A stretch of 64,000 nt of DNA from positions 103,472 to 167,471 of IMG/VR virus record IMGVR_UViG_3300036770_005754; one strand, written 5' to 3'. Below the pieces are notes generated by a model. The model saw only the letters and a list, made by a program, of their open reading frames with translations, was not told the origin of the DNA and searched no databases. Each line of letters starts with the position of its first letter. Positions within the stretch are counted from its first letter, which is position 1. Source of the stretch: a virus. The translations under genes and the position numbers were made by a program. Below are positions 54,489 to 57,759 of this stretch, in pieces.

Positions 54489-54698
54489 TCAATGACTCCC
54501 GTTTAAATATTCATCGATTTGGGTTCGCAATTTTAATATCATTTCTATACATGGCTCTGACATAACTTGATATATTTTTTCGTTCTTTGGTAGTATGTCT
54601 CTACGTAATGATCCTAGTGCTAATTCAGCCCTGATTAACTGTTCACGTACGACTTTCAATTCTTCATTGTTTCCGATCGTGTCTCGAATTTCTTTCAT
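54489..54698 (-). CDS. Small coiled-coil protein
   Basis: 69-aa ORF. Confidence 0.55.
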   Translation of the reverse strand: MKEIRDTIGNNEELKVVREQLIRAELALGSLRRDILPKNEKIYQVMSEPCIEMILKLRTQIDEYLNGSH

Positions 54699-54754
54699 TC
54701 TAGTGGCCTTACTAATGTAAGTTAGTAATCTTAACTATTCTAGTTTAATTTTTG

Positions 54755-55425
54755 GATAGGGTTTGGCTCCCCCCATACAAGGAGATATTTGCGACAAAAG
54801 AAAATCGCGAACATCAACTCATATGATCTTGGTGACGACAGCGTGTCGCCCCATCCACGACATCAAGGCAAGCTCCAACACGAACCAATTTCAGGGGGAA
54901 GCTGTGTGTTGGTCGAAACCTTTTGCCATTCTCCTACCCACGTCGCACTCCCGCCAAGGAGGCCGTACACTCTACCAGTTTTGGTGCCTTAGGAGATTCG
55001 AGTTACCTGAGATAACATCACTTACTGTCAGTCCATCAGCTTCGTCTAGGCTACGAATGATTTGAAATTTTTGGTTGCCAAATGGCGTTAACATCGAAGA
55101 TTTTTCTTAATCCTAGACCCACTGCAGTAAAACTGAGTGATATCAGATTGGCATCCCAGGCATGTGGTACCTCAACCGTCGGGCTTGAGCTTCTTCTCTC
55201 CTTAAAACGCCCCTGTATTTCTTTTAGGCTCCAACATCATGTTGAAAACCAGCTACAGCAGGTGACCCGTACGCTTTTCGCCTTCGTGATCCGCACCCAC
55301 CAAATGATGGATGGCAAGAATACTTAAGAACCAACTGTAGCCGATTGAGGGTTAACATTGCAGGAAGTAGCAAACAACGCTACTATGTCCGATCACAAGG
55401 ACCGGGCGGCTCTGATCAACCGCTA
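54755..55425 (-). ncRNA. Candidate large (~670 nt) structured non-coding RNA
   Basis: The only long gap without a credible ORF; more GC-rich than its flanks; more than 12 nested helices, with non-canonical pairs that are G-U on the minus strand (see findings). Confidence 0.65.
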
Positions 55426-55459
55426 AAATATAAATACTAAGAAAGAGAAACAAACAACA

Positions 55460-56563
55460 TCAAAACTCACTAGACTCAATAACATACAACTCATCACCCT
55501 CATGCATTACCTCATCATTGCACCTATTCAAAATAGCAATATCAAGATCCTTAATATTCTTTGAATCACGCTCAACCCAAACCATAAACAAATTATGATG
55601 CAAAGCAGGAGAAGGGCCCTCCAAAATCTTCTCAGCATCAGGCTCCTTCTTAGGCTTCATCTCCATTAGCCTAACATCCTTGGCACCCCTCTTAAGTAAT
55701 TCCTGCTTAAGAACAGCTTTCTCATCATTGGTAAAATCTCGATCCAAAGCGATTCTAACCATCGCCCCAGAGACATCAGCCGACTTCACAGACTCATCAG
55801 AAATAGTAGTGAATTGTGGAGGCTGAGGAACGTCAGGAAAATAACGTGACCCAGCCTTCCAAATATTCACGAATTTATGGTTTGACGCCTCAATATCATA
55901 AACATAAAAACCATGCGGAACGTCTCCCTCATCAAACTTGAAAGGGATCGGAGAACCAGGATACCAAACATTTTCGCCAACTTGTTGCTTGCTATGAAAA
56001 TGGCCAGTATAAACTCTCTTGAATGTAGAGTATTCAAAAGTCACACTGGACCAGTCCTTAAGCAAGAAGCAAGTGTTGAGTGTGGCACTCCGAACGCCTA
56101 TATGAGTTAATAAAATGTCTTCATTGGGTCTATATTTTTCATGTTCCATGATGGCCCTAACGACTCTCATATATGCCTTTTCATAAGTTATGAATGGCAA
56201 GATCCAAAACTGCTGATTATCGATATCCAATAATTTGACATCTTCGATTACAGTCAGATGTTTCTTCAAAGGTGTCAGACTATTGACTCCCCAAGAATGC
56301 CTCAAGAACATGTCATGATTACCAGGGAATACTATCCAATTTTGGCCGTATTTCTCTTTTGTTTCCTCAAAAAATCTTGCAACTTGCGAATTCACATCGA
56401 TTTCAATCGCCTGCCTATTATGATAGAGATCACCTAGAACAAACATCACATCAATCTCATGTTCCGCACAATATTCACGCATTACGCGACAGGCCCAAAG
56501 TATATCATCAGTACGCCCGGGCACACCAAAATGAATATCAGCAGTAATTCCGACGCACGTCAT
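55460..56563 (-). CDS. sbcD: Mre11/SbcD/gp47-like metallophosphoesterase nuclease
   Basis: DIHFG, LGDLYH.R, PGNHD, LLTH, GHFH, YPGSP....F.E. Confidence 0.93.
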   Translation of the reverse strand: MTCVGITADIHFGVPGRTDDILWACRVMREYCAEHEIDVMFVLGDLYHNRQAIEIDVNSQVARFFEETKEKYGQNWIVFPGNHDMFLRHSWGVNSLTPLKKHLTVIEDVKLLDIDNQQFWILPFITYEKAYMRVVRAIMEHEKYRPNEDILLTHIGVRSATLNTCFLLKDWSSVTFEYSTFKRVYTGHFHSKQQVGENVWYPGSPIPFKFDEGDVPHGFYVYDIEASNHKFVNIWKAGSRYFPDVPQPPQFTTISDESVKSADVSGAMVRIALDRDFTNDEKAVLKQELLKRGAKDVRLMEMKPKKEPDAEKILEGPSPALHHNLFMVWVERDSKNIKDLDIAILNRCNDEVMHEGDELYVIESSEF

Positions 56564-57290: not shown

Positions 57291-57488
57291 ATGCCACGAT
57301 ATAGAGTCAGCGGAACAGTAATAGCTTCAAAATATCTCGGAGAATTTGAGGCCGATACCGAAGAGGAGGCTATCGAAATGGCACTTAGCAGTGAAAATGC
57401 TTACGTAAGCCTGTGCCATCAATGTTCTGGCGAATGTGAAAACCCAGAAATTCACGATGCGAACGCGGAACCGATCGATGAAGAATAA
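57291..57488 (+). CDS. Small acidic Cys-motif protein, tandem copy 1
   Basis: MPRYRVSGTVIASKYLGEFEA...CHQC. Confidence 0.75.
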   Translation: MPRYRVSGTVIASKYLGEFEADTEEEAIEMALSSENAYVSLCHQCSGECENPEIHDANAEPIDEE

Positions 57489-57522
57489 TCGCTGGTTAAT
57501 CCGCTGTTTGGAGAAATACGAA

Positions 57523-57759
57523 ATGCCACGATACAGAGTCAGCGGAACAGTAATCAGCGGAGCAATAATTGCTTCAAAATATCTTGGAGAATTTGAGGTT
57601 GGCACCGAGGAGGAGGCCATCGAAATGGCACTTAGCAGTGAAAATGCTTACTTAAGGCACGCTAGAATATTGATAGCACAGACGGATTTTTGTGACTGCT
57701 GCGGAATTCATGATGCGAGTGCGGAACTGATTGAGGAATCTATCGAGCAGCCTCAGTAG
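57523..57759 (+). CDS. Small acidic Cys-motif protein, tandem copy 2
   Basis: MPRYRVSGTVISGAIIASKYLGEFEV...CDCC, after GGAG. Confidence 0.75.
   Translation: MPRYRVSGTVISGAIIASKYLGEFEVGTEEEAIEMALSSENAYLRHARILIAQTDFCDCCGIHDASAELIEESIEQPQ

Follow-up and report, generated by a model that had tools for sequence, protein, structure and literature searches.

A region of some 670 nt in the genome of a T4-like phage is without a credible gene, and the question it raises is whether it encodes a large structured RNA and, if so, of what kind. It lies in a window of 64,000 nt (the whole stretch of DNA that was analysed), which belongs to a virus record of 176,558 nt that is about 49% complete. The sequencing run that matches the record best comes from a subsurface metagenome, perhaps the origin of this DNA. 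We know of only a few RNA classes, from bacteria or phages, that are this large and structured. Those to which a function has been assigned are ribozymes or belong to core machinery, and GOLLD, ROOL and OLE are open questions. A first-pass annotation, made from the sequence alone, had described the region as the largest gap without a credible gene, and it does lie in the largest gap of the 176.6-kb contig that has no ORF of at least 105 aa. The bounds proposed at that stage, 54755-55425, agree with the conserved bounds to within a few bases. Comparison with relatives shows a conserved, non-coding, multiply pseudoknotted RNA gene of one clade of T4-like huge phages, its fold kept in dozens of viruses.

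Genomic setting and extent of the gene

Pfam and PHROG scans recovered a T4-like myovirus gene set, with the gp23 capsid, gp20 portal, tail sheath and tail tube proteins and, on the replication and recombination side, UvsX/UvsY, gp32, SbcC/SbcD, a DnaB helicase and a family A polymerase. One weak match to a Planctomycete cytochrome domain (E 2e-4) is a hint at the host and no more. Near-complete relatives bearing the RNA measure 354-408 kb. The RNA region sits between sbcD and a 69-aa ORF, in the following arrangement.

54756..55424, minus strand: whole RNA gene, the conserved block in alignments A3 and A4; probable 5' end near 55424, probable 3' end near 54756-54766
55431..55437, minus strand: heptamer GTATTTA, about 6 nt ahead of P1; candidate promoter or processing element
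55460..56563, minus strand: sbcD (gp47-like) nuclease gene (PHROG 100, E 3e-36), the usual upstream neighbour
54489..54698, minus strand: 69-aa ORF, downstream and outside the RNA element; swapped for unrelated sequence in X2 and X3

The Logan contigs X2 and X3 retain 54711-55460 though the neighbouring downstream ORF, which had no family match, is exchanged. The gene usually lies within a recombination gene block, with an SbcD homolog at most 2.5 kb upstream in 21 of 33 rows, and there is one copy in its own contig and one per record in the whole-record model search. Elsewhere in the contig, a second gap without long ORFs (761 nt, G000:98939-99699, in L175) lies outside the window. Within the window, two adjacent short ORFs at 57291-57759 on the plus strand have the same N-terminal protein segment, a recent duplication, and the first belongs to PHROG 9642.

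The heptamer reads GTATTTA in 22, GTATTAT in 7 and GTATTTG in 2 of 31 rows, a count for which row starts were chosen by that motif; its spacing to P1 and P2 is nonetheless constant in the alignment. This spacing would be compatible with a -10 element. The orientation is opposite to that of the motif enriched before these phages' genes, which counts against a promoter reading: for the reverse complement TAAATAC, the 28.6 kb upstream of starts have 7 copies, versus 9 in the 245 kb that gene bodies occupy. The contig has just one other intergenic copy of the heptamer, and it faces a gene in the TAAATAC direction. A scan of the minus strand for sigma-70 promoters and terminators found none. At the 3' end, a SUAUA motif lies about 8 nt past the G tract. 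A 349-aa sigma-70 region-4 protein (L209:16584-17630, plus strand, in G004) is a candidate reader of the 5' heptamer; it is common to the three complete RNA-bearing genomes and has no BLAST match in the four RNA-lacking ones.

Homologs, coding potential and inheritance

A single SbcD protein query found no loci, and an SbcD alignment query led to 48 IMG/VR loci. BLASTN and nhmmer recovered the region in 11 of 91 loci, three of them weakly and all on the strand of sbcD; against 50,697 GenBank phages, BLASTN gave three chance matches of 25-28 nt and nothing else. Core motif scans yielded true matches in 11 of 22 and 9 of 20 cases in IMG/VR and 26 genuine ones among 36 in metagenomes, and a third motif pattern added one new record among 8 matches. 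Model R1 was applied first to the loci and afterwards to 50 records in full. Of the 48 SbcD records, 16 have the RNA by this model, and the 12 best-scoring rows are all among them; among records at least 90% complete it was found in 3 of 11. A GTDB motif scan, an exact-motif test blind to diverged forms, gave 10 matches, all false and none above 18 bits. With model R2, no member was found in G016, G017, G019 and G028 (covered except for at most 0.4 kb), nor in another five records. Homologs range from about 490 nt (the L033 group) to about 860 nt, some bounds being rough or cut, and reach about 1,190 nt in L009; the mean pairwise identity of 26 full-length rows is 50%.

Coding was rejected for the ORFs of 100, 81, 67, 49 and 40 aa. 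Conserved coding in the short ORFs had been named at the outset as the outcome that would speak against an RNA, and the relatives' matches to them are partial, with stops or frame breaks even in close relatives. Insertions or deletions of 1 nt occur among relatives at 54795, 55010, 55064, 55101 and 55399.

On a quick SbcD tree, from which the near-copies L033, L035 and L048 were left out, all 22 RNA-bearing rows fall within one group of 33 rows (SH-aLRT 96). The other 11 rows are without match, so the RNA is dispensable or diverged in part of the clade. RNA presence needs 3 changes on this tree versus 17 in shuffles. Identity of the RNA core follows that of SbcD (Mantel rho 0.70, 0/2000, n=21), which is consistent with mostly vertical descent with some loss or divergence. 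The phages that keep the RNA have SbcD proteins with no more than 38-90% likeness, and this retention points to a maintained function. The flanking genes differ in identity and orientation across 33 rows and no neighbour stays fixed: the nearest upstream ORF is directed away from the RNA in 12 of these rows, and the nearest downstream ORF is directed back in 4. Five records have the RNA inverted or separated from sbcD by kilobases; L009 has it inverted upstream of sbcD, and the distance is about 6-17 kb in G001, G002 and G005. Because the neighbours vary in this manner, the RNA is not the cis leader of one gene, and it is probably independent and trans-acting.

Two possible partner proteins were rejected. 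For the 395-aa downstream protein, 43 loci were found, and the 15 searched with R1 had no real match. The neighbour c0, present in 24 of 33 rows, is a protein with collagen repeats; RNA-lacking loci have it too, so that its proximity reflects synteny only. This conserved, cysteine-rich protein (560-840 aa; L002:6030-7781, plus strand, and 23 other rows) often follows the RNA or sbcD; it is without a PHROG match and absent from the window's contig.

RNA-lacking relatives have ORF-free gaps of 600-800 nt of their own (L275:9288-9913 in G016, L282:1370-2176 in G017 and L300:17414-18048 in G028). The first two have no Rfam match at gathering score, and the third contains repeated blocks. G017 also has a second structured non-coding stretch (L284:2975-3400, plus strand; z -2.56), which follows a 16-nt unit repeated about four times and has UGAUAGAGUG and CGACC...GGUGC in common with the RNA described here. 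It scored below 3 bits with R1, had no match with R2 or Rfam, and was excluded from the member count; a further new RNA and a very remote relative are both conceivable.

Strand, covariation and fold

The first-pass annotation had advised a search for homologs near sbcD and a covariation analysis; the homologs exist, and their covariation is strong. In a MAFFT alignment of 27 sequences, the 40 pairs of the core are 92.8% paired and 26 of them show compensatory changes. Its covariation score was equalled by 0 of 500 shuffles and its pair count by 3, with slid controls at 33-53%. In a model-fitted alignment of 34 sequences, which is biased towards the fitted structure, 30 of the 40 core pairs show compensatory changes. 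Eight further helices were set against 300 shuffles each: P2, P3, P4, P5a, P5b and pseudoknot A scored above every shuffle, pseudoknot C above 297 of them, and P4b never covaries. All covariation shuffles ignore relatedness, and the results are not probabilities. An alignment-free duplex test gave greater strength for cognate than for non-cognate partners in all six pairings tried, with P3 and pseudoknot A the weakest. The relative X3 is about 94% alike; of its 39 listed substitutions, 17 are at paired positions and affect 13 pairs, of which 4 are changed in a compensatory and 6 in a consistent manner, and 3 are broken, at or beside helix ends.

The minus strand had been proposed from the recurrence of G-U oppositions. 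It is fixed by their excess over A-C in four core helices (81 versus 8). Single-sequence folding favours the same strand (z -2.25, with 1 of 20 shuffles as good; plus strand z -0.03), and among 14 members the proposed strand is favoured in 8, the other in 5, with 1 tie (8 shuffles each). Single-sequence folding is only modestly better than shuffles and does not by itself decide the strand, and the proof therefore rests on the homologs. Taken across these, the gene, its strand, its helices, the lack of a conserved ORF and the co-variation with SbcD are direct observations, and the region almost certainly encodes a selected, non-coding structured RNA.

What defines the fold is a set of three pseudoknot pairings over long range, together with a 22-nt loop that hardly varies and a linker that varies greatly. 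From 5' to 3' the layout is P1 and P2; a domain closed by P3 with P4 and pseudoknot A; P5 with its CA bulge and variable linker; AACUCGAA; P6 round the 22-nt loop, P7, the GA bulge and P8; P9 and P10 around UUCGA/WGCU; and finally variable hairpins, then a G tract paired to the C-rich loop of P10. The elements are as follows.

55366..55423, minus strand: hairpins P1a (55423-18/55411-06), P1b (55405-400/55394-89) and P2 (55384-79/55371-66), with a conserved CAUA linker
55162..55358, minus strand: 5' domain, closed by P3 (55358-55/55165-62) and containing P4 (55343-34/55259-50), P4b and variable hairpins
55215..55323, minus strand: pseudoknot A, GUAUUCUU (55323-16) with AAG-A-AAUAC (55223-15)
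55005..55161, minus strand: long irregular helix P5, with P5a (55161-53/55013-05), P5a2, a conserved CA bulge, P5b (55136-30/55034-28), P5c and P5d
55051..55111, minus strand: linker at the tip of P5, variable, weakly structured and often A-rich
54913..55001, minus strand: pseudoknot B, UCGAA (55001-54997) with UUCGA (54917-13)
54930..54996, minus strand: core domain, with P6 (54996-90/54936-30), the nearly invariant loop, P7, an invariant GA bulge (54944-43) and hairpin P8 (54963-45)
54989-54968, minus strand: nearly invariant 22-nt loop inside P6, AG-R-YRCC-RAA-N-YUG-RUAGAG
54859..54927, minus strand: P9a/P9b (54927-18/54869-59) and P10 (54912-06/54881-75) around the UUCGA/WGCU internal loop, with a C-rich loop at 54902-54894
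54766..54902, minus strand: pseudoknot C, loop-to-tail or kissing, GCUUCCCCC (54902-894) with GGGGGGAGC (54774-66), and variable hairpins between

In the 5' half, P2 is paired in 126 of 156 cells, with compensatory changes in 5 of 6 pairs and 0 of 300 shuffles as high. The same shuffle result holds for P3 (86/100 paired), P4 (213/250), P5a (194/219), P5b (170/182) and pseudoknot A (149/181), in which 6 of 8 pairs are compensatory; the duplex of pseudoknot A has -4.6 kcal/mol for cognate versus -3.1 for non-cognate partners. A G-C to A-U change in P4 at 55341/55252 is present in all three runs that cover it, and P5 carries an A-U to G-C change at 55138/55020 in X3. A 5' pairing, GUAUUU/GAGUGU, and a GCACC/GGWGC pairing did not covary and were kept out of the model. 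The segment within P5b measures 75-287 nt in 24 members and tolerates tandem repeats. In the linker of G003 (L008:5427-5567, L189:1-130) a 9-nt unit recurs 15 times or more; the contig opens and closes inside this linker, which makes the number of copies uncertain and perhaps a product of assembly. Shorter linker duplications occur in L003, L009, L010 and L115.

About 30 invariant positions are grouped in a 145-nt 3' core. P6 is 98.8% paired with compensatory changes in 5 of 6 pairs, and such changes affect 9 of 9 pairs in P9 and 5 of 7 in P10; by the window's register, P7 pairs in 58 of 100 cells. The loop of P8 is of GNRA type in 13 of 34 members. Pseudoknot B, 95.6% paired, is nearly invariant, with one clear compensatory change (G-C to A-U in L009/L194); the L032/L033 group has UCAA upstream and UUGA nearby, where the alignment is uncertain. 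A pseudoknot C duplex is possible in 26 of 26 members, including the variants CUCCACC/GGUGGAG, CCCCAC/GUGGGG and CCCCGC/GCGGGG, with -16.5 kcal/mol for cognate versus -12.7 for non-cognate partners. By column it is paired in 132 of 175 cells, with 3 of 300 shuffles as high and slid controls also high, at 0.59-0.69. A candidate fourth pseudoknot on the minus strand joins the invariant core-loop CC (54984-54983) to a GG in the P8 loop (54955-54954), with 5-6 pairs in L007 and L124.

The helices named in the first-pass annotation are all present in the sequence at the positions it had given. Judged by alignment A4 and the relative X3, 9 of its 13 hold and 4 are mispaired. The strong ones are GCGGUU/AGCCGC (45/52 cells paired), AGUAGC/GCUACU (120/150), CGGCUACAGU/GCUGUAGCUG (203/240) and CCAACAC/GUGUUGG (155/175). 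Five others are confined to subgroups or poorly aligned, namely CAUCCAUCA (44/69), CAACA (60/119), AUAUCAC (52/128), GUCUAGG (99/160) and GCGACA (32/83), and X3 has compensatory change in three of them. The AGGAGA at 55202 had been paired with UCUCCU (55/123), where the conserved partners are UCUCCUA/UAGGAGA(54936), paired in 171 of 172 cells. Also mispaired were AUCUGA/UCAGGU (63/142), UUACUG/CAGUAA (69/150) and GGCAA/UUGCC (77/124), in whose place the alignment has GCCUGGGAU/AUCUCAGGU (185/210), UCAGUUU/GGACUGA (163/175) and AAGGU/GCCUU (117/124). The minimum-energy fold tends towards the same four mispairings. The three pseudoknot pairings were absent from the earlier helix list.

Possible functions and relation to known RNAs

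We assign a probability of about 40% to a trans-acting scaffold like GOLLD and ROOL that assembles into an RNA multimer. The analogy is one of architecture: the RNA is phage-borne, of similar size, and combines a conserved 3' core, a looser 5' domain, a free linker and long-range pairings. It would be transcribed on its own during infection, from an element around GTATTTA, as the rows in which the upstream gene is directed away suggest. The 3' core of the transcript would fold compactly and its 5' domain more loosely, and at least one of the three long-range pairings is predicted to form between molecules, most plausibly the C-loop/G-tail pairing or pseudoknot A. The variable linker would be left free for holding or displaying cargo, and the invariant 22-nt loop is predicted to be the surface at which a conserved partner, for example the ribosome, a tRNA or a protein, makes contact. 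All three long-range pairings could instead be intramolecular. The distance from tRNA genes, unlike the situation of GOLLD and ROOL, counts against a scaffold, and the dense invariant unpaired bases fit catalysis or ligand binding as well as scaffolding. Since these bases are many and clustered, binding to a protein or the ribosome and ribozyme activity stay close as rivals.

The invariant single-stranded loop and bulges would also suit an RNA that works as a monomer, binding some machine of the host or phage (the ribosome, RNA polymerase with a sigma factor, or a nuclease) as a decoy or regulator like OLE or 6S RNA; we regard this as somewhat unlikely. The usual location in the recombination gene block speaks for it, as do 24 of the 537 ORFs of G004, which have matches in G003 and G049 yet none in four RNA-lacking genomes. 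Scanning of 19 of these 24 put names to the sigma-70 region-4 protein, an Rrf2-type regulator, a NucS nuclease and a methyltransferase. Against such a partnership, these 19 proteins and two orthologues contained no known RNA-binding family, no gene is fixed beside the RNA, and the co-occurrence of clade proteins is expected from shared descent alone, which accounts for them as well as partnership does.

It is less probable again that the RNA represents a new large ribozyme class, in which the 145-nt pseudoknotted core would process or join phage RNAs in trans and have its active site at the invariant loop, the GA bulge and pseudoknot B. The clustering of invariant positions in that core favours the idea, and so do two resemblances: pseudoknot B, P9, P10 and the WGCU joiner follow one another along the strand much as in the P3-P7-P8 pseudoknot of group I introns, and P7/P8 with its 2-nt bulge is reminiscent of group II domain V. 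In addition, RNase P RNA (RF00010) was absent from 5 of 5 RNA-bearing records, three of them near complete with 6-20 tRNAs, and was detected in 11 of 14 controls. On the other side, no Rfam ribozyme model matched the window or 16 homolog loci at E<=5-10, there is no apparent substrate or guide, and P9 varies at every pair, leaving no fixed G-binding pair. A group I P6 equivalent, R/S motifs and a fixed G-site pair are likewise absent, and the group I model (RF00028) has no match over the RNA. A weak score with a group I model at G000:55811-55963 on the minus strand (18.1 bits, cut-off 50) falls inside a long ORF and is probably chance. That the RNA interrupts no gene had been noticed at first reading; in 33 rows the flanking genes are whole, unrelated and variable, with no halves to rejoin, and a group I or group II intron was rejected. 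A group II intron or ORF-less derivative was also discarded, neither a domain V/VI nor an Rfam match being found, as was RNase P RNA, which had no model match in the region or 16 homolog loci. The earlier impression that signatures of RNase P, tmRNA and group II domain V are missing is borne out, the models being silent over the RNA and the features not found.

It is very improbable that the region acts as DNA, as a replication origin, recombination site or domesticated mobile element with no functional transcript. Its location in a replication and recombination block, the similar TAT-containing motifs at both ends and the 5' motif facing away from the RNA would fit such an element; G-U tolerated ten times more often than A-C, the GNRA-type P8 loops, the single copy per contig or record and the co-variation with SbcD argue against it, and no transposase, reverse transcriptase or homing nuclease is linked. 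A retron or other RNA associated with reverse transcriptase was rejected on the same ground: the scanned ORFs of the contig contain no reverse transcriptase, and RVT_1 occurs in 1 of 5 RNA-bearing records (G003:180540-181160, minus strand, L331; 459-aa frame), where some 174 kb separate it from the RNA.

The most improbable reading, and one largely refuted, is a tmRNA that has diverged or been split and uses the linker as tag reading frame. In its favour, UUCGAC and a 3' GGACG-G-rich stretch resemble motifs of the G028 tmRNA, the linker lies at the tip of a long irregular helix with a short frame ending VA or AA plus stop in four members, and one RNA-bearing genome has a 137-nt mini-tmRNA. Against it, the RNA offers neither an acceptor stem nor a T-arm nor a CCA end, UUCGA has its pairing partner upstream, 27 members have no common frame, a 1-nt insertion at 55064 shifts the linker mini-ORF in the 97%-identical X2, and the ARAGORN and Rfam tmRNA models are silent. 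ARAGORN found no tRNA or tmRNA in the region, and its 956 calls at a lowered threshold were noise. Canonical tmRNAs (RF00023 and permuted forms) share with this RNA several pseudoknots, a long irregular helix with an A-rich loop and the UUCGAC motif; they differ in that here there is no tRNA-like domain and no conserved tag frame, and the phages are without SmpB (absent from 5 of 5 RNA-bearing records). Two RNA-lacking genomes have canonical tmRNAs, versus none of 3 near-complete RNA-bearing ones, too few to weigh. Mini-tmRNA genes of 135-140 nt (L197:1501-1640, minus strand, in G004; L198:1501-1635, plus strand, in G017) have an acceptor stem, UUCGA motif, T-arm and apparently the first pseudoknot, with little or no tag region; they score 55.7 and 41.7 bits with Rfam and were missed by ARAGORN.

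A check against Rfam, as first advised, gave no match in the region at gathering score; relaxing the limit to E<=10 brought up six fragments there, all by chance. The 16 homolog loci had no relevant match at E<=5. The GOLLD model had no match at E<=10 in the region, at E<=5 in the 16 loci and at E<=1 in 5 RNA-bearing records. The ROOL model had none in the region, the 16 loci or the RNA-bearing records, and 14 control genomes gave none either, which leaves the search of those records with no positive control. The first-pass annotation had left the choice between a ROOL/GOLLD-type class and a new one; a large ornate phage RNA stands, and a new class is favoured. We found no account of this RNA in the literature covered, most subscription papers being outside its scope. 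The motifs in the available part of PMC10690425 measure at most 151 nt, and four of its supplements contain neither the core 12-mer nor the contig id; its uncompared models could include a fragment. The text of bioRxiv 10.64898/2026.10.21.760802, as far as available, has no mention of sbcD, ornate, jumbo or huge phage, and its uncompared supplements could likewise include one. The RNA thus belongs to a real, apparently undescribed family of large pseudoknotted phage RNAs, outside every family tested.

ROOL and GOLLD are described in the available part of PMC12286853 as phage-borne RNAs of about 600-800 nt with several pseudoknots, some proved intermolecular, and a non-conserved linker; GOLLD has a conserved 3' and a looser 5' region. 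By the same partial account, whether cage formation is common among large natural RNAs is undetermined. An unrelated family with variants of about 490-1,190 nt, a mapped 145-nt core and three long-range contacts makes this question directly testable, and in vitro transcripts suffice, with no need for phage culture. The tRNA-island neighbourhood frequent for GOLLD and ROOL is absent here, the nearest tRNA being 45-92 kb from the RNA in 4 of 4 genomes. A multimeric cage free of protein and a high abundance on infection are further marks of GOLLD and ROOL. From ROOL (RF03087) the RNA also differs in its helices and conserved motifs; from GOLLD (RF02032) it differs in a linker that takes tandem repeats and in which no tRNA was found. 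With ROOL it shares, as far as PMC12286853 was available, phage encoding, a length of about 600-660 nt, several pseudoknots, a non-conserved linker and the absence of a known protein partner; with GOLLD it shares, on the same basis, a size of several hundred nt, a conserved 3' core, a looser 5' region, an insertion-tolerant linker and covarying long-range pairings. The likeness to both thus lies in a length above 450 nt, several covarying pseudoknots and a non-conserved linker.
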